Of a stretch of 23,986 bases of DNA, positions 3,484 to 19,738 are shown piece after piece (the first letter of the stretch is position 1; the number at the start of each line of letters is the position of its first letter). Location of the stretch: positions 1-23,986 of IMG/VR virus record IMGVR_UViG_2529292907_000023. One strand, given 5' to 3'. The notes under the pieces were generated by a model that was not told where the DNA came from, searched no databases, and saw only the letters and a program-made list of their open reading frames with translations. Source of the DNA: a virus. Taxonomy: Duplodnaviria; Heunggongvirae; Uroviricota; Caudoviricetes. The position numbers and the translations under genes were made by a program.

Positions 3484-3699
3484 TTACTCTCCCCGCGCCG
3501 CCTTACGCCGGTCCTCTCTGATTTTGAAATACAGGTTAGTCAGATATGTCAGCAGCCCAAACAGCAGACTCCCCAGCACGCCTATTGCCGCCCACTGAGA
3601 CGGGGAAACCCTGTCCAGCAACTGCAGGAACCAGTAGCCCGTTCCCACCGCTGACGTGGTGTATGACACACCTGTTGTGATTTTTTCCATCTGGTACAT
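3484..3699 (-). CDS. S: Class II holin (pinholin), phage 21 S21-type, dual-start MYQM
   Basis: Protein [71 protein letters not shown] closely matches my recollection of S21 (…[46 protein letters not shown]); GGGAGA RBS upstream of ATG 3699; the longer ORF to 3777 would run through an upstream terminator hairpin. Confidence 0.85.
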
Positions 3700-5925: not shown

Positions 5926-5931
5926 GTCCAT

Positions 5932-5955
5932 AAGAAAGCCCCTCCGGAGAGGGGC
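5932..5955 (-). terminator. Minus-strand intrinsic terminator-like hairpin (7-bp stem, tetraloop)
   Basis: GCCCCTC-cgga-GAGGGGC; on the minus strand it is followed by TTTCTTAT. Abuts the plus-strand terminator, forming a convergent pair. Confidence 0.45.
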
Positions 5956-6151
5956 TGGAGAGTGGCGCTATGTGCCATTGCATGGTGCCGGGTGCCTCCC
6001 GGTGAATTCAGTACCAGCACCTGAATCCGCGATTATCCCATATACCTACTCGCTGATTGCCCCTCCGCACAGGGGGATTCACCATGCCAGTTTCTTTTAA
6101 CAAACTCCCCGCAAAACAGACAACTGTCAACCGTCTGAATTGTGAGACATT

Positions 6152-6178
6152 TAAAAAAAGGCCCGCAAAAGCGAGCCA
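6152..6178 (-). terminator. Intrinsic terminator immediately downstream of the tRNA cluster
   Basis: On the minus strand GGCTCG-cttttg-CGGGCC followed by TTTTTTTAA, directly 3' of tRNA-Arg(UCU). Confidence 0.6.
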
Positions 6179-6191
6179 GGGAAAATAAGTG

Positions 6192-6268
6192 TGGCGCGTT
6201 GTACTGGATTCGAACCAGTGACCGATTGCTTAGAAGGCAATTGCTCTGTCCGGCTGAGCTAACAACGC
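6192..6268 (-). tRNA. argO: tRNA-Arg (anticodon UCU)
   Basis: Reverse complement GCGTTGTTAGCTCAGCCGGACAGAGCAATTGCCTTCTAAGCAATCGGTCACTGGTTCGAATCCAGTACAACGCGCCA folds as a cloverleaf (7-bp acceptor, GTTCGAATC T-loop, CCA end); anticodon loop CTTCTAA. Symbol assigned only by positional analogy to phage 933W. Confidence 0.9.
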
Positions 6269-6281
6269 AGGGTACAGATAA

Positions 6282-6358
6282 TGGACCGCCATCGAGGACT
6301 CGAACCCCGCGCAACCAGCTTCGAAGGCTGGCGCTCTATCCTGATGAGCTAATGGCGG
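6282..6358 (-). tRNA. argN: tRNA-Arg (anticodon UCG)
   Basis: Reverse complement CCGCCATTAGCTCATCAGGATAGAGCGCCAGCCTTCGAAGCTGGTTGCGCGGGGTTCGAGTCCTCGATGGCGGTCCA; anticodon stem CCAGC/GCTGG with loop CTTCGAA (U33, anticodon UCG, A37). Symbol by positional analogy only. Confidence 0.85.
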
Positions 6359-6365
6359 TATGTGA

Positions 6366-6441
6366 TGGTGGCCCTTGCTGGATTTGAACCAGCGACCTGG
6401 CGATTATGAGTCGCTCGCTCTCACCACTGAGCTAAAGGGCC
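6366..6441 (-). tRNA. ileZ: tRNA-Ile2-like (anticodon CAU, lysidine type; Met cannot be excluded from sequence alone)
   Basis: Reverse complement GGCCCTTTAGCTCAGTGGTGAGAGCGAGCGACTCATAATCGCCAGGTCGCTGGTTCAAATCCAGCAAGGGCCACCA is very similar to E. coli ileX (tRNA-Ile k2CAU) as I recall it; anticodon loop CTCATAA. Confidence 0.9.
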
Positions 6442-14364: not shown

Positions 14365-14748
14365 GATGGCAGCCTCCGTTGACAGTGAAAAACTTCCACC
14401 ACCGGAAACGCCAATTTCACTGGTGGTGAACTGGACGGGGTTGGCGTAACCGGCGTCAACGGAGACCGGCGCACCTTTCGGTGCCCCCGCCCAGCCCACC
14501 ATAATCTGGATGTGAGCAAATGCGGACGATAAAAAAGACGCTGACGCGTCATACATCGCCGTTGACAATTTCAGGACGCCAATCCCGGCACCCGCTTTAT
14601 AAGGTGCAGAGACAGTGTAACGTCCCGAAATTGCAGAATCAATATTTGGTCTTGAAATGATCATATAGCTGCTGATATCTTTAGAACTGTTCTTGGATGT
14701 TTCAGAGCCGTTTTATGCGAAACAGCTCCCCGTTATTGATGTTGAGTG

Positions 14749-14774: not shown

Positions 14775-15481
14775 CACCGCTGCCAACCAATAACCTGAAA
14801 TAACCCCATTTTCGGGTGATACCAGCGAGTCCCTCGCGGTTCTGCTTCCTCCATAACCCGATAAAAAGCAGCCATAAACGGTTCCACAGCAACAATTGCG
14901 CGACGTGACAACAATCCGTCCGGCGTCATGAACTCATGGGTGTCTGTAGGAATCTGATAGGCGTTCACCAGATTGCGGCATTTATCATCTGACAAACCGG
15001 TTTTTGCTTTCAGTTGGCGATATCCGGCATAGCCCTCACGAATAGTGCCCTTTTTAATTTGCTCGACTGTTTCAGCAACGTGGCTGACTTTTTCTTCCAC
15101 CTGAGTGATACGTTTCTGTTGGCGAACGGCTTCAAGAGCCATCGCGGCAACCATTTCGATTTCGCTCATTGGCTTACGGATCTGTTCTTCCAGTTCGCGC
15201 CAGCGATCTACCAGGCGAGCTGTGAATTCAGGACAGAGCTGTGCGACGACAATGATGCTGTCGCGCTTACCTCGTTCACCTTCGAATACATACGCGCTAG
15301 AAAATCGGCGAGGCCCAAGTGATTGTTTATTCTCAATTTCCACAGTCTGTGGAAATTGGATGATTCCCTTTTTAGCCAGTGTTTCAATAGTTCTCTTAAC
15401 ACTATCTGGTCGGCTTCCCACCAGCTCTGCGATCTCAACGCTGGTCATGGATGCTTTGCCGTTAAAAATTGCGGTGTTCAT
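14774..15481 (-). CDS. Phage regulatory protein, probable Rha/antirepressor-like N-terminal DNA-binding domain
   Basis: 235 aa; AGGAGA RBS; N-terminal MTSVEIAELVGSRPDSVKRTIETLAKKGII and later DSIIVVAQLCPEFTARLVDRW resemble the Rha/ORF6N-type motif; second gene of the rightward early operon. Confidence 0.45.
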   Translation of the reverse strand: MNTAIFNGKASMTSVEIAELVGSRPDSVKRTIETLAKKGIIQFPQTVEIENKQSLGPRRFSSAYVFEGERGKRDSIIVVAQLCPEFTARLVDRWRELEEQIRKPMSEIEMVAAMALEAVRQQKRITQVEEKVSHVAETVEQIKKGTIREGYAGYRQLKAKTGLSDDKCRNLVNAYQIPTDTHEFMTPDGLLSRRAIVAVEPFMAAFYRVMEEAEPRGTRWYHPKMGLFQVIGWQR

Positions 15482-15705
15482 TGTTGGTCTCCTGTGGGCT
15501 TGTCATCTTCTGTATTCGCTAGACTTGGGTGTGTATATGGAATGCTCGGATCCAGATGACAAAGAATGGCAACATCCTCCGGAACACCTCGCGTTTTCCA
15601 CTTTCCAACACCTTGACTGCCACGAGGCCTTCCTTTCTTTGGGAACCTGCGACCAATAGCGGCATTGGTTTTAAATTGAATTTTTAATATTTCATAAAGG
15701 GTCAT
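15478..15705 (-). CDS. Hypothetical protein (75 aa) in the cro position (first ORF of the early-right operon)
   Basis: Divergent from cI across a 110-bp operator region; basic region GRRFPKKGRPRGSQG; weak RBS; no HTH I can recognise, so a Cro identity is not supported by sequence. Confidence 0.4.
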   Translation of the reverse strand: MTLYEILKIQFKTNAAIGRRFPKKGRPRGSQGVGKWKTRGVPEDVAILCHLDPSIPYTHPSLANTEDDKPTGDQQ

Positions 15706-15816
15706 TCTTTAGTCTCACACCAGATACTTTGTTATCCAACGATGTTAACCACAGGAACCCAAAGTATCAAGAAATTCTGTTACTTTAGTATCAACAGCCA
15801 TGAGAGGAGAAGAAAA
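15706..15816. promoter_or_regulatory. oR-like divergent promoter/operator region between cI and the early-right operon
   Basis: Three copies of a GTATCA-core motif: GATACTTTG (15723-15731, inverted), CAAAGTATCAAG (15760-15771), TTAGTATCAAC (15784-15795); the first two form an inverted repeat 28 bp apart. Confidence 0.55.
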
Positions 15817-16473
15817 ATGAAGTCTTTAGGTGAACGTCTCATCAACGCACGGCAAAAAGCTGGGTTAACACAAGATGCGTTGGCTAAAAAAGCTGGGGTC
15901 ACCAGAGTTGCAATCAGTAAAGCCGAGCAAGGCCTTACAAAAAGTTTCAACGGTGACACCCTTTTTAAAGTTGCAGCTGCACTGCGGTGTTCACCGCAGT
16001 GGCTTCAGAACGGAGATGAAAAAGATAAGCATTGGGAAAATAATGTTAAGAGCTGCCCACAGAGAGACACAGCACACTCTTACCCTGTAATTAACTGGGT
16101 TCAGGCAGGATTATTCGCAACTTCTGGTGATGACTACAACATGTATGATCAGGATAATTGGAGGCATTCTGTAAAATACGCTGGTGAGAGGGGGTTCTGG
16201 CTGGAAGTGCACGGAGACTCAATGACTTCGCCCGTAGGAATAACATTTCCTGAAGGAATGTCGATCCTTGTCAACCCAGATAAAGAAGTTTTTTCAGGGT
16301 GTTACGTCATCGCCAGAAAAAAATCTACCAATGAAGCAACATTCAAAAAATATATTTCTGACATGGGAAAGGCGTTTCTAAAGCCCCTTAATCCACAATA
16401 TCCAATCATAGAAATGGACAATGATTGCGAAATAGTAGGTGTTGTGGTTGATGCCAGGTGGGATATTTTCTGA
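15817..16473 (+). CDS. cI: CI-type prophage repressor (XRE HTH N-terminus, LexA-like S24 autopeptidase C-terminus)
   Basis: ATG 15817 with GAGAGGAGAAG RBS; HTH (LTQDALAKKAGVTRVAISKAEQG); Ala-Gly cleavage-site candidate (VQAGLF); catalytic Ser in GDSM and downstream Lys (IARKK). Confidence 0.85.
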   Translation: MKSLGERLINARQKAGLTQDALAKKAGVTRVAISKAEQGLTKSFNGDTLFKVAAALRCSPQWLQNGDEKDKHWENNVKSCPQRDTAHSYPVINWVQAGLFATSGDDYNMYDQDNWRHSVKYAGERGFWLEVHGDSMTSPVGITFPEGMSILVNPDKEVFSGCYVIARKKSTNEATFKKYISDMGKAFLKPLNPQYPIIEMDNDCEIVGVVVDARWDIF

Positions 16474-16576
16474 CCAGACACAAAACACAAAAAGAAACCA
16501 AAGTATCAAAAATCACTTGCCACACCTTGATACCTTAGTTACCATAAAACAAAGTTCGTAACTGAGGTATCATCTC
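16474..16576. promoter_or_regulatory. oL-like operator cluster downstream of cI
   Basis: Three more GTATCA-core sites (CAAAGTATCAAA about 16498-16509, TTGATACC about 16527-16534 inverted, GGTATCA about 16565-16571); the first repeats the oR site nearly exactly. Confidence 0.45.
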
Positions 16577-16993
16577 ATGATCAATAAAGCTACAACTCTT
16601 GACTGTCTCGAAGAACTGAAAAACCTCGGCAGCCTCATTACACTAATAGCAAAAGCAACACCTGATGCTACGCTCTCTAGCGATATAGAGTCATGCGCAG
16701 GACTGGCATGGGATATGACAAATAGCATATCCAGAAAGCTATCGTCAGCAATGCTTTTACAGAACAAAAATTCTGCAATCAACAACCGTCTTCGCACCCA
16801 ACGCGAAGCCTGCGGCTTAACAACCGCCGAACTCGCCAGGCTGCTCGATCTCGATGAAGAAATTATCATCCAGTGGGAGAGCGGAGAGTATGAACCAACT
16901 ATCAGTATGCTTATCCCACTGGCAAATATTCTTGGCTGCGATGCGATGTGGCTGTTAACTGGCGAAACGGCAGCAAAGGATATCTGCGCATGA
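16577..16993 (+). CDS. XRE-family HTH protein (138 aa) with C-terminal HTH and N-terminal domain of unknown function
   Basis: C-terminal INNRLRTQREACGLTTAELARLLDLDEEIIIQWESGEYEPTISMLIPLANILGCDAMWLLTGE is a classic XRE HTH; the N-terminal ~60 aa are unrecognised; AT-rich. Confidence 0.6.
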   Translation: MINKATTLDCLEELKNLGSLITLIAKATPDATLSSDIESCAGLAWDMTNSISRKLSSAMLLQNKNSAINNRLRTQREACGLTTAELARLLDLDEEIIIQWESGEYEPTISMLIPLANILGCDAMWLLTGETAAKDICA

Positions 16994-17232
16994 AAAACTG
17001 TAATGCTTACCATATTTGTCTCATTGGTGAATTGCTTGATTTCATACAAAAAAGCACTGCGCGCAATAATAAAAATATAACATATGGTGATCTGGTAATA
17101 ATTTCAGAGGATATAAAGAGCATCGCTCTTAAATTCAAGAGCGACGCGAGTATTGATGACGCTATTTACGCTTATCTTGCGAAAATAATTGACGGATCCA
17201 AAATCCAGCCTCTGGATGAACCTCGTCAGTGA
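16990..17232 (+). CDS. Hypothetical protein (80 aa), translationally coupled to the upstream HTH gene
   Basis: ATGA start/stop overlap at 16990-16993; AAAGGA RBS-like sequence upstream; AT-rich; no recognisable motif. Confidence 0.5.
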   Translation: MKNCNAYHICLIGELLDFIQKSTARNNKNITYGDLVIISEDIKSIALKFKSDASIDDAIYAYLAKIIDGSKIQPLDEPRQ

Positions 17233-17389
17233 AAAACTCCTTTGATGAAGATGAGAACTGCTTCATAAACTTTACTTTATCTTCAGGTGAAACTACCTGA
17301 CGAATTAATGCGGAGATAGCAACTTTGTGCCAAATTAATTCTTTTTTGAGTTCTGAAATCTCTTTTTCGAGTTGCTCTGCGTTAATCAT
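17162..17389 (-). CDS. Hypothetical protein (75 aa), convergent with and 3'-overlapping the preceding ORF
   Basis: Very strong SD (GGAGGATAAATG) at the minus-strand start 17389; coiled-coil-like N-terminus (EQLEKEISELKKEL). Confidence 0.6.
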   Translation of the reverse strand: MINAEQLEKEISELKKELIWHKVAISALIRQVVSPEDKVKFMKQFSSSSKEFFTDEVHPEAGFWIRQLFSQDKRK

Positions 17390-17568
17390 TTATCCTCCAT
17401 TGAGAGCTGAATTGAAAATGGGGACCAACACGCGGCTACGTGTGGTCGTGCGCCGGACACGGATAAGCATCCGGTAACTGATTATCAATCATTGCGGAAA
17501 CAGTCTCAATATGAAAACACTTCTGAGACTCGCTATATAGCAGAACATATAAGTCAGCTGAGGAAGCC

Positions 17569-17934
17569 ATGAAAAAGTTCGAAAACATAACTGTTCTCCA
17601 TGTTGATGACTTTGATTATACAAACCCGGAACTTCTCCCGGAGGTTGTAAAGGCAATAGATGTTGCCGATATAGTGATTAGAGAAAAGAGAATTGTCAAA
17701 AACAGGCTCGCATGCACTTCAGGAGCAATGACAGAAACAACCTCACAGCAAGATAATTACGAAGGCATTTGTCTGGAGCCTGATTCATTTGCGGTAAATG
17801 TTTATCATTTATTGCATGCAACACAGGTATTACATATGTCCAGTAATCACGAAACGAAAACACTCGGCAGCGAAATTCTGAGTTTTGCATGTGAGTATAC
17901 AAAAGCTGCTGCCGAAAAAGAATTAGCGCAATAA
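17569..17934 (+). CDS. Hypothetical protein (121 aa), AT-rich orphan gene
   Basis: GAGGAAG RBS; about 38% GC versus about 50% for neighbouring phage genes; no recognisable motif. Confidence 0.6.
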   Translation: MKKFENITVLHVDDFDYTNPELLPEVVKAIDVADIVIREKRIVKNRLACTSGAMTETTSQQDNYEGICLEPDSFAVNVYHLLHATQVLHMSSNHETKTLGSEILSFACEYTKAAAEKELAQ

Positions 17935-18012
17935 CAACAAATATGCCCTGAACGTTTATTGCGGTTTTATCGCCGGGGATTGTTACAACCTTAATCCACA
18001 GGAGGCTTTATT

Positions 18013-18126
18013 GTGACTTTTATAAAGAATATGGCATCACACAAGACCGCCTGCCTTATTGCACAATACGGTGAAAATTACATGCATATTGCCTGCTTAT
18101 TTCTGCGTAAAGCATACGGGAGATAA
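18013..18126 (+). CDS. Small ORF (37 aa, GTG start) with strong SD; possible leader peptide or small protein
   Basis: GGAGG then 7 nt then GTG; its stop (TAA 18124-18126) lies 2 nt before the ATG of the next gene. Confidence 0.35.
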   Translation: MTFIKNMASHKTACLIAQYGENYMHIACLFLRKAYGR

Positions 18127-18128
18127 TA

Positions 18129-18317
18129 ATGCATCAGAAAACAGCAGAACACGAACAAACCAGAATATTGCTGACCATCAAAAACGGGAAAGTAATATTC
18201 ATTCGCCATGTTCATGACGATGAACATGTAGGAACTCTTTCAACATTCCTGTTTATTGCAGAAAGGGCAGGATATGACGTTATTGCACCAGCAGATGAAG
18301 ATGAAGATGAGGAATAA
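18129..18317 (+). CDS. Hypothetical small protein (62 aa) with acidic C-terminal tail
   Basis: GGGAGA RBS; C-terminus PADEDEDEE. Confidence 0.55.
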   Translation: MHQKTAEHEQTRILLTIKNGKVIFIRHVHDDEHVGTLSTFLFIAERAGYDVIAPADEDEDEE

Positions 18318-18322
18318 ATATC

Positions 18323-18904
18323 ATGCAATACGATGAATTCCAGGCTGAAGCAACAGCCAATGGTATACGAACTGGCAGTATGACGATTGATTATCACGAC
18401 GCCATACGTCGTCTGGATGCCGGAGAATTCGATACTCCTAATGTGCGAGGTTTACGTATCCTTCAGTGTCTGGCGCAAGCCGACGAAGCAGGATTACTGG
18501 GTAAACTTCCGGTTGAGATGAAGGTTGCTCAGTGGCGATGGTTGTATGTGACGACATTCATCAACGAAGAAGAAGACAAGAACGGCACAATTGATATCCT
18601 GAATGAACACGGAACAACTGAACACGCCGTGGTATATAACGGGATGTATGGGTTTATGACGATATATCCCGGCCCCATTCGATTTGCCTTACAACAGTAT
18701 ATTGAATGGAATTTAATTCAAAAATACGGCGAAGCTGAAGGAATGGGAAGAGCGCTGTTTCTTTATCAGAAAATGCTCACTACTTCCCCTGATAAAGGTT
18801 TCATTCTTTCAGATATGGGTCGAGAAGGGCTTGAAATCCTTCTGGATGAAATTATTAACGAAATGAATACTCATGGCATGCAATCCGAAACAGATATTAA
18901 GTAA
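18323..18904 (+). CDS. Hypothetical protein (193 aa)
   Basis: ATG 5 nt after the upstream stop with GAGGA RBS; no recognisable motif. Confidence 0.6.
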   Translation: MQYDEFQAEATANGIRTGSMTIDYHDAIRRLDAGEFDTPNVRGLRILQCLAQADEAGLLGKLPVEMKVAQWRWLYVTTFINEEEDKNGTIDILNEHGTTEHAVVYNGMYGFMTIYPGPIRFALQQYIEWNLIQKYGEAEGMGRALFLYQKMLTTSPDKGFILSDMGREGLEILLDEIINEMNTHGMQSETDIK

Positions 18905-18914
18905 AAGGGACCAC

Positions 18915-19163
18915 ATGACCGTTATCGAGTATATCCAGGAAAATCCAGATTGCAGTAGAGAAGATATATCCCTCGCACTTGGAAGAAGCGCAACTTCTAT
19001 CAGTAATGAATTATCACGGTTATTGTGGAATGGGTTAATAGTACGAACTGGAGAAAAAAACAAAATGATTCTGTACTGCGTAAACAATCTGCCGTTTGGA
19101 TACAGCAATCCCCTAAGTGTTATGTTCAACCAGTTACTTAAACAGGTAAGAAATGGCAACTGA
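18915..19163 (+). CDS. Small putative winged-helix DNA-binding protein (83 aa)
   Basis: ATG 18915 with AAAGGGA RBS; MTVIEYIQENPDCSREDISLALGRSATSISNELSRLLWNGLIVR resembles a wHTH. Confidence 0.5.
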   Translation: MTVIEYIQENPDCSREDISLALGRSATSISNELSRLLWNGLIVRTGEKNKMILYCVNNLPFGYSNPLSVMFNQLLKQVRNGN

Positions 19164-19470
19164 CTCACAACTAACCATAGAAACGGCCCTGAATGTCGGC
19201 CTGGCGCTCCTTGGTTATTTTTACATCGTGTTCTGCAGCGGACGGTGGCTGTCGCTGTTGTTCCTGAAAAAATGGAATAAACGCCGTAAGCAGGATGAAC
19301 GCCAGAAGGCAATGAATGCGTTTTCCGAAGCCTTCGGAATTGACGGCATGGAACCAGGGGATCCAGCTCGCGCAATCAGCAGAGGGGGTGTAGTAATCCT
19401 TGTATATCGGAGTGAAGAGAAAAATGACGATCACAAAACAACGAGTAGAAAAAATCATATATCGCCATGA
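19153..19470 (+). CDS. Small membrane protein (105 aa, one predicted TM helix)
   Basis: AGGTAAG RBS; hydrophobic segment ALNVGLALLGYFYIVFCSGRWLSLLFL followed by a basic stretch KKWNKRRKQDERQK. Confidence 0.5.
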   Translation: MATDSQLTIETALNVGLALLGYFYIVFCSGRWLSLLFLKKWNKRRKQDERQKAMNAFSEAFGIDGMEPGDPARAISRGGVVILVYRSEEKNDDHKTTSRKNHISP

Positions 19471-19738
19471 AATGGGACTGAACAGCGATGTCACTGCCGA
19501 AGAGGTTTATGACCTGGCTGTACTGGCGCTGAATTTATCAAATATCGCAAACCTGAAGCGATACGAGCTTGATATGGATGGTTGCGACTCGTGCGGTCAG
19601 GATTGTGGCGCAGATATGACTGAAGATCCTGATGGTGATTATGTCCTGTTTGATGACGTGGTTAAGTTGTTTGAATTTGATACAACCACTCAAAAGTTAG
19701 AAATCCCGGCAAAGGAGGCTGCCAGTGAGCAAGATTGA
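19424..19738 (+). CDS. Hypothetical protein (about 105 aa; alternative start at 19472)
   Basis: Acidic C-terminal half and a Cys cluster (CDSCGQDCG); overlaps the upstream ORF by 47 nt if 19424 is used. Confidence 0.45.
   Translation: MTITKQRVEKIIYRHEMGLNSDVTAEEVYDLAVLALNLSNIANLKRYELDMDGCDSCGQDCGADMTEDPDGDYVLFDDVVKLFEFDTTTQKLEIPAKEAASEQD

Follow-up and report, generated by a model that had tools for sequence, protein, structure and literature searches.

Phage morons, as described by Hendrix and colleagues, are promoter–gene–terminator units inserted between the genes of an operon. The superinfection exclusion gene sieB, present in Rac, lambda and P22, runs counter to the leftward early operon; it is transcribed from a promoter of its own and is active in the lysogen. 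In the Rac prophage of Escherichia coli K-12 it is located between ydaF (DUF1391) and kilS/kilR, which are on the other strand. Here we analyzed a 23,986-nt stretch of viral DNA (IMG/VR record IMGVR_UViG_2529292907_000023, positions 1 to 23,986; hereafter the window, to which coordinates refer unless another record is named), which by sequence comparison is a phiP27-like lambdoid prophage of E. coli. On its minus strand, in the same slot and orientation as sieB, it carries a small cassette with a gene for a 75-amino-acid (75-aa) protein, antisense to the leftward early operon on the plus strand. We propose, with a probability of roughly 0.35, that the ~90-nt sequence heading this cassette belongs to an undescribed but widespread cis-regulatory RNA of two types, which defines a swap-in antisense small-gene cassette in the sieB slot. 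The initial annotation had singled out positions 17390–18320 as one AT-rich orphan island with a structured upstream region and an acidic small protein. This interval is probably not a single island; rather, modules that can be exchanged separately meet here within the leftward early operon.

The limits of the cassette module (16964–17481) were defined by comparison with a sister prophage in E. coli SF-088, which lacks it. The two prophages are 99.9% identical on both sides, ~160 unrelated bp replace 16964–17481 in SF-088 and identity resumes at 17482. Because it resumes exactly there, 17390–17481 travels with the 75-aa gene and not with the 121-aa gene that begins on the plus strand at 17569. 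The cargo of the module, the 75-aa gene (17162–17389, minus strand), matches phrog_20080 (E = 1.4e-46). An intrinsic-terminator-like hairpin on the same strand (17120–17147), with a 12-bp stem followed by UCUUUAUAU, lies 15 nt past its stop codon and has no T-run behind it on the plus strand. At the other end, a sigma-70 promoter-like site, TTGAGA-17-GATAAT (17481–17509, minus strand), matches 10 of 12 consensus positions and is the joint top-scoring promoter-like site in 15400–19500. Its predicted start, ~17475, is 1 nt before the first helix of the leader (P1). The order of the unit would be promoter, ~86-nt structured leader, strong Shine–Dalgarno (SD) sequence, 75-aa gene and terminator, and the cassette, which sits where Rac has sieB, may be expressed in the lysogen as a unit running against the early operon. 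With a predicted promoter, a gene, a predicted terminator and an insertion/deletion difference from SF-088, it has the layout of a moron. In the phiP27 reference (L002, 5784–5963), the 75-aa gene is frameshifted in an A-run, leaving 35 aa to the stop, and the annotated gene there is the 60-aa L09; the frameshift reflects a sequencing error or marks a pseudogene.

The 5′ leader of the putative 75-aa mRNA (17390–17475, minus strand) was scored by a covariance model, R1, at 97.6 bits (E = 8e-23) as the single copy in the window. From 5′ to 3′ it comprises P1 (17474–17453), the linker CGCAC (17452–17448), P2 (17447–17423), an anti-SD segment (17422–17417) that can pair with 17401–17396, and the SD sequence GGAGGA (17398–17393), which is followed by the ATG of the 75-aa gene. 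P2 and P1 are the inverted repeats GACCAACACG/CGTGTGGTC (17423–17447) and CCGGA/TCCGG (17453–17474) that had been noticed earlier, and both are indeed present. The region upstream of the 121-aa gene is structured to that extent, but the hairpins belong to the minus-strand leader of the 75-aa gene, and the plus-strand fold has a z score of only −1.5 against shuffled sequences. For 28 distinct leaders of the same sequence type (type 1), RNAalifold independently predicted P1, P2 with a one-base bulge and the anti-SD/SD helix (P3). For the second sequence type it predicted P1, an alternative P2 hairpin at the same place and a hairpin containing the SD. Standard pairs occupied 94.7% of the pair cells of the alignment, compared to 23–48% when the partners were slid by one to three columns, and two P2 pairs showed double compensatory changes. 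These data support the P1 and P2 helices at the level of sequence comparison, while an SD gate is a prediction from folding only; the SD/anti-SD helix shows no covariation because both of its sides are nearly invariant. The 3′ arm of P1 and the linker had been fixed by the search pattern, and R1 was run on loci fetched with the exact core pattern; both elements were also invariant in five copies found by BLAST.

The strand on which the hairpins act was considered next to the alternative that they work on the plus strand or as DNA, be it as a put-like antiterminator, as an RNase III site as in dicBF or as a palindromic regulator site. The elements lie inside early operons whose plus strand is transcribed after induction, CCGTGTCCGGCGCACG is invariant in every copy read, beyond what a plain stem needs, and a G-to-A variant of P2 at column 52 can pair on the plus strand alone. 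Five other G–U substitutions in P2, as well as a near-invariant U–G in P1, pair only on the minus strand. The consensus folds at −23.9 kcal/mol on the minus strand versus −20.0 kcal/mol on the plus strand, with the minus strand better in 23 of the 28 sequences. Homology among copies stops at the minus-strand ATG after GGAGGA and, at the other end, approximately at the −10 box. In addition, the plus strand offers no T-run, and the one-base bulge of P2 misfits a symmetric operator. A put-type antiterminator of the HK022 kind was rejected, as the pairing favors the antisense strand and R1 had no match in the 12 kb around the early genes of HK022, nor, with filters off, anything below E = 0.45 in 23.5–33.5 kb of this record, in which the put sites are unannotated. 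On balance, an element acting on the plus strand or as DNA appears quite improbable, although a cargo-less copy in the Qin prophage of K-12, in a long untranslated stretch upstream of dicF, would suit it.

Transcription of the leader on the minus strand would be consistent with the −10-like hexamers that precede P1 by 5–7 nt in nine distinct upstream sequences, a position that fits a transcript beginning at the foot of P1. The proposed arrangement resembles the leaders of hok, ldr and zor and the ompA stabilizer, in that a 5′-terminal stem-loop at the predicted +1 precedes another hairpin and a predicted helix between SD and anti-SD. Unlike the short hydrophobic toxins of type I toxin mRNAs, the proteins encoded behind the leader are hydrophilic and diverse, no cognate antisense small RNA (sRNA) gene was seen, and the calculated SD occlusion is not above background. 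By analogy, the 5′-terminal hairpins may stabilize the mRNA, and translation would be driven by the strong SD, which the anti-SD might gate. A gating role for P3 is unsupported because the predicted SD is no less accessible than in shuffled sequence and shows no temperature effect. The idea of an RNA thermometer was dropped, the SD-unpaired probability computed in silico being flat (0.262–0.284) from 20 to 42 °C.

The leader was then found to be a family, with two sequence types sharing the same three-helix layout, in many E. coli prophages. BLAST of 17380–17520 detected type 1 in 1,109 of 5,426 complete E. coli genomes, at up to four places per genome and mostly without any annotated feature; a type-1 structured leader is present, mostly unannotated, in about one-fifth of these genomes. 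At their two ends, the matches stop at the ATG and close to 17481. Among IMG/VR viral contigs, type 1 occurs in more than 119 (by an exact 18-mer from the leader) and type 2, which is just as common, in more than 120. Read on the minus strand, type-1 copies follow CCGGAUkCUUAUCCGUGUCCGG CGCAC GACCACACG-loop-CGUGUUGGUC UCCAUU-(17 variable nt)-AAUGGAGGAUAAAAUG. Type 2 keeps P1 and the linker, replaces P2 by CUCCAC-7 nt-GUGGAG and continues with CUCCUU...CAGGAGGGUGAAAUG. A search of Rfam 15 returned nothing over 17390–17510 at E ≤ 5, and around the copy in an O157 genome only DicF and a sub-threshold STnc100 match nearby. The leader sequence was not found in the searchable literature; the elements treated in the DicF paper (PMC5069750) and in the Pas sRNA preprint are different ones.

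The homology among copies begins near the predicted start site and reaches the start codon, beyond which lie unrelated open reading frames (ORFs). The leader stands directly upstream of the 75-aa gene in all 20 copies found by protein search, and elsewhere type 1 and type 2 head further ORFs, the cargos of both types together amounting to ~18 unrelated families of 57–101 aa (a crude grouping by identity gave 20 clusters, with one family divided between two of them). Morons were defined singly; ~18 unrelated genes under one structured leader fall outside that concept, although the 75-aa unit is alike in its promoter-like site, its terminator and its presence or absence between near-identical prophages. 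Pfam and PHROG scans of ten cargo families other than the 75-aa protein revealed no known function, except for one borderline GhoS match. Homologues of this GhoS-like cargo at 63% and 48% identity have no leader, and therefore cargos appear to have been captured into the leader context. The conserved leader may double as a homology joint for such swapping.

In an alternative reading, the leader has no function as RNA and is a promoter–ribosome-binding-site linker, spread recently by recombination and hitch-hiking with cargo exchange among related prophages. Lambdoid mosaics break at gene boundaries. The copies are very similar (mean column identity of 85%), covariation is weak and the SD-sequestration calculation was negative, all of which a recent spread would accommodate. 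So would the scan of species-representative genomes with the type-1 pattern, which gave a single hit, in a 'Bryobacteraceae' metagenome-assembled genome, that the covariance model did not confirm and that we treated as chance. A passive linker does not readily account for two types that keep one layout while placing different P2 hairpins at equivalent positions, for P2 substitutions biased toward preserving pairs, for a loop and P3 spacer that vary freely while stems and anti-SD do not, or for the persistence of the leader under many different upstream promoters. We consider such a functionless linker unlikely.

Several observations weigh against our overall reading of the interval. The covariation is thin, with leader sequences ~85% alike, most copies carry a U·U mismatch in P1, the commonest non-consensus P2 variant has two A·A mismatches, and the anti-SD of the window itself contains a C·A mismatch. 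In the partition function the SD-unpaired probability is 0.26–0.28, compared to 0.20 with shuffled upstream sequence. The assignments of the leftward promoter, start site and terminator come from matches to consensus sequences only, and the −35 box and most of the −10 box lie in sequence common to the cassette-less relative. An exclusion or defense role for the cargos draws on position and diversity only. For the neighboring 62-aa protein, which is considered below, a low-confidence AlphaFold2 model gave no fold match in PDB or BFVD.

The genomic surroundings of the cassettes parallel those in the window. In all eight contexts inspected (the window, five E. coli chromosomes, a deleted remnant in phage P13374 and phage phiSTEC1589), the cassette runs antisense to the early operon around it. 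DUF1391/ydfB-like genes lie to one side of the cassettes and dicF/dicB to the other, both in the opposite orientation, with dicF ~270 nt away on the other strand in 105 of 164 distinct copies, and terminator-like hairpins with a U-run follow ~8 of the cargo families. The Qin prophage of K-12 MG1655 retains a type-2 leader (27.7 bits) between ydfC and dicF, on the strand opposite the dicBF operon (L129, ~3573–3670; genome positions ~1,649,072–1,649,169). Just upstream of most leaders, the dicBF strand carries a block, CCCTGAAAAGTCAGGG, that we take to resemble lambda boxB in sequence. P13374 and other Stx2a phages of the O104:H4 type (L003, 2487–2551) retain only a remnant, in which P1 and one half of P2 are joined to the 3′ portion of the gene for a cargo beginning MDKKLNQARW; the annotated plus-strand ORF16 overlaps it.

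Compared to Rac sieB, the cassettes differ in content. Neither cargos nor leader have sequence similarity to sieB, and the cargos, at 57–101 aa, fall into many unrelated families. The region upstream of Rac sieB contained no leader and no match to the covariance model. The 75-aa protein and ten other cargo families gave no match to Pfam or PHROG entries annotated as SieB, the remaining families being unscanned. If the proposal holds, one leader over ~18 unrelated ORFs points to common post-transcriptional control, and the diversity of the cargos suggests a hot spot of lysogen-expressed exclusion or defense mini-proteins, or of their counters. The leader, which heads a changing set of small proteins beside the well-studied dicF/dicB locus, would as a real control element offer a sequence handle for prophage small genes missed by annotation pipelines, and a testable system for the expression and swapping of lysogen-specific mini-proteins in prophages.

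On the plus strand, the flagged interval contains ordinary early-left accessory genes of a common prophage type, within an AT-rich immunity and early region. The three ORFs reported there exist as described: 121 aa (17569–17934), 37 aa (18013–18126) and 62 aa (18129–18317). The sequence upstream of the first (17482–17568) travels with the 121-aa gene and is common to cassette-less prophages. It contains an inverted repeat, AGTCTCA-N15-TGAGACT (17502–17530), that overlaps the −35 box of the leftward promoter-like site and may serve as a site for a regulator or form a hairpin in the mRNA of the 121-aa gene. The 121-aa protein (phrog_5451) has 28 close clusters, every source-named one from Escherichia, and no Pfam match. 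Its AlphaFold2 model (predicted local distance difference test (pLDDT) score of 72 overall and ~90 at residues 80–110) predicts a small N-terminal domain, a disordered linker and a confident C-terminal helical hairpin, without a significant fold match in PDB or BFVD. The C-terminal half also occurs as stand-alone 68-aa proteins. A relationship between this C-terminal domain and the N terminus of the 138-aa helix-turn-helix (HTH) protein encoded upstream, suggested by shared weak matches to phrog_4836, was discarded after a pairwise BLASTP comparison (E = 0.95).

The 37-aa ORF, with a GTG start after AGGAGG, ends 2 nt before the ATG of the 62-aa gene. In phiP27-type copies at ~75% nucleotide identity the 37-codon frame remains intact, differences at the three codon positions number 9, 3 and 17, and the ratio of nonsynonymous to synonymous substitution rates (dN/dS) is 0.06 in frame versus 0.75 and 7.5 in the other two frames. 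From these comparisons, it is a real gene under purifying selection. In some relatives a different gene follows, and homology stops exactly at the ATG after the 37-aa stop codon. A non-coding block at ~17950–17990 (GTTTATTGCGGTTTTATCGCCGGGGATTGTTACAACC...), 5′ of the 37-aa ORF, is conserved at 39 of 42 positions between the window and the phiP27 type, compared to ~74% for the ORF.

The 62-aa protein is a stand-alone LLTIxNGxV...DE...AGYxV domain with a variable acidic tail. It matched phrog_340 over residues 2–61 (E = 3.4e-23) and, weakly, phrog_4792 (E = 3.8e-08), at the C terminus of anti-repressors. It aligns to the C-terminal 40–50 residues of Rha and anti-repressor proteins (Pfam Phage_pRha; PHROG 4792 and 2379). 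A profile search gathered 44 clusters, mostly of 60–80 aa, some in tandem and one fused to Rha (P0083), with Phage_pRha at residues 21–104 and a 62-aa-type domain at 116–161. The 62-aa protein itself has no Rha or KilAC domain, and the two Rha genes of the window lack the 62-aa-type domain. As a free copy of the C-terminal domain of Rha and anti-repressors, the protein most likely acts, by analogy, through protein–protein contact in the early regulatory circuit. It had been speculated that this protein, which ends in PADEDEDEE, could act as a DNA mimic or anti-defense factor; its net charge is about −8. In close relatives the tail varies between EE and EEEDEDEDEE, in relatives at <50% identity it is missing, and no match to Pfam, PADLOC, PDB or BFVD favors such a role; we regard a DNA mimic as unlikely. 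The AlphaFold2 model of the 62-aa protein reached a pLDDT of 62. PADLOC had no match for the 75-, 121-, 37-, 62- or 193-aa proteins, and PDB sequence searches had none for the 121-, 37- or 62-aa proteins.

Given these features, we revisited the view of 17390–18320 as an autonomous AT-rich moron that encodes an acidic DNA mimic or anti-defense protein and uses the hairpins to regulate the 121-aa gene. The low GC content is real (0.406 versus 0.494 for the whole window, at the third percentile of 931-bp windows), each ORF has a good ribosome-binding site and mosaic breakpoints fall at the gene boundaries 17934/17935 and 18128/18129. The low GC content is, however, that of a 3.8-kb tract (15400–19200, GC 0.419) whose minimum lies at 16991–17921 and which takes in cro, cI, the first genes of the operon and genes past the interval. 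The GC content of the 121-, 37- and 62-aa genes is 0.39, with 0.29–0.42 at third codon positions (GC3). The corresponding values are 0.37–0.45 and 0.33–0.40 for their neighbors in the tract (cro, cI, a candidate 80-aa ORF and the 75-aa, 193-aa and MarR-like genes) and 0.47 and 0.46 for the 138-aa HTH gene. The supposed difference in composition from neighboring genes largely disappears, as the GC3 range overlaps the 0.33–0.46 of these neighbors, and the 180-bp upstream region is in fact the GC-richest piece of the interval (0.464).

Nor do the three genes appear autonomous. Between 17390 and 19234 the plus strand has no promoter-like or terminator-like site, except for an internal match at 17728–17757, and the genes abut the next one, whose ATG (18323) lies 6 nt from the 62-aa stop (18317). 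The hairpins belong to a different module on the other strand, the acidic tail is not a family feature and no defense, anti-defense or DNA-mimic family was matched. An autonomous moron is very improbable here; the moron-like label suits the minus-strand 75-aa cassette only, the 121-, 37- and 62-aa genes lacking both the promoter–terminator layout and the distinct composition, and the readings of an orphan island and a DNA mimic are not supported. These genes fall into PHROG families whose phiP27 and Stx-phage members occupy the same position and, on sequence grounds, are conserved phage accessory genes packed into the operon that begins at 16480–16576. They are common early-left genes but not well-known ones. 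The homologues in phiP27 stand in the same order (L08 for the 121-aa gene and the frameshifted L09 for the 75-aa gene), L07 is a distant homologue of the 62-aa gene by translated alignment, and L07–L09 and their Stx1a and Stx2a counterparts are all annotated as hypothetical. The 121-aa gene and the coupled 37- and 62-aa pair would be ordinary operon genes, transcribed after induction from a promoter-like site at 16517–16545.

The layout of the whole prophage is in agreement with this assignment. Positions 16500–19500 matched E. coli chromosomes at 99% identity over the full length, phage phiP27 at 92% over the left half, with homology reaching ~18151, and Stx1a phages at 92% over the right half, the shared part being ~17930–19430. 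Annotated relatives are lambdoid prophages integrated beside yecN/cmoA. The minus strand carries the rightward early genes (a cro-like gene, two Rha genes, replication genes and Q), and the plus strand carries a LexA/S24-type repressor gene (15817–16473), followed by the run of small genes and then xis and int. An operator/promoter block equivalent to OL/pL (16480–16576, plus strand) marks the start of the leftward early operon. It contains three operator-like 15–16-mers of the TTGATACyTwrGTTwC type (16494–16509, 16527–16542 and 16558–16572), and a matching trio lies in the cro–cI intergenic region (15721–15794). The operon starts at ~16520, as the trio at 16494–16572 overlaps the promoter-like site TTGCCA-17-TACCAT (16517–16545), which places the flagged interval 0.8–1.8 kb inside it. 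With three operator-like 15–16-mers on either side of the repressor gene, the six copies have the classical OR/OL layout. CI-type operators were also considered for 17390–17568, but the repeats were located at 15721–15794 and 16494–16572 instead.

The first gene of the operon encodes the 138-aa HTH protein (16577–16993, plus strand; Pfam HTH_3, E = 8.6e-11; phrog_4739, E = 7.6e-83). It is shorter than its relatives (166–230 aa) and its 3′ end, from ~16964, lies inside the cassette module; therefore, the cassette replaced the C-terminal part of the protein. A candidate 80-aa ORF (phrog_23054; 16990–17232, plus strand) starts in an ATGA overlap with the HTH stop, crosses the minus-strand terminator, shares 71 nt with the 3′ end of the convergent 75-aa gene and has no RefSeq annotation. 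Elsewhere in the window, a C4 antisense RNA (81 bits) and isrK (62 bits) are adjacent at 14419–14607 (minus strand), in or beside the Rha/anti-repressor genes, a pairing that presumably recalls the P1 c4–ant and Gifsy isrK arrangements. At 5926–6441 (minus strand), an STnc100 sRNA (139 bits) adjoins a SASA-family esterase gene, followed by three tRNA genes; a 2026 preprint linked STnc100 to PasD sRNAs in a Q–esterase–holin context.

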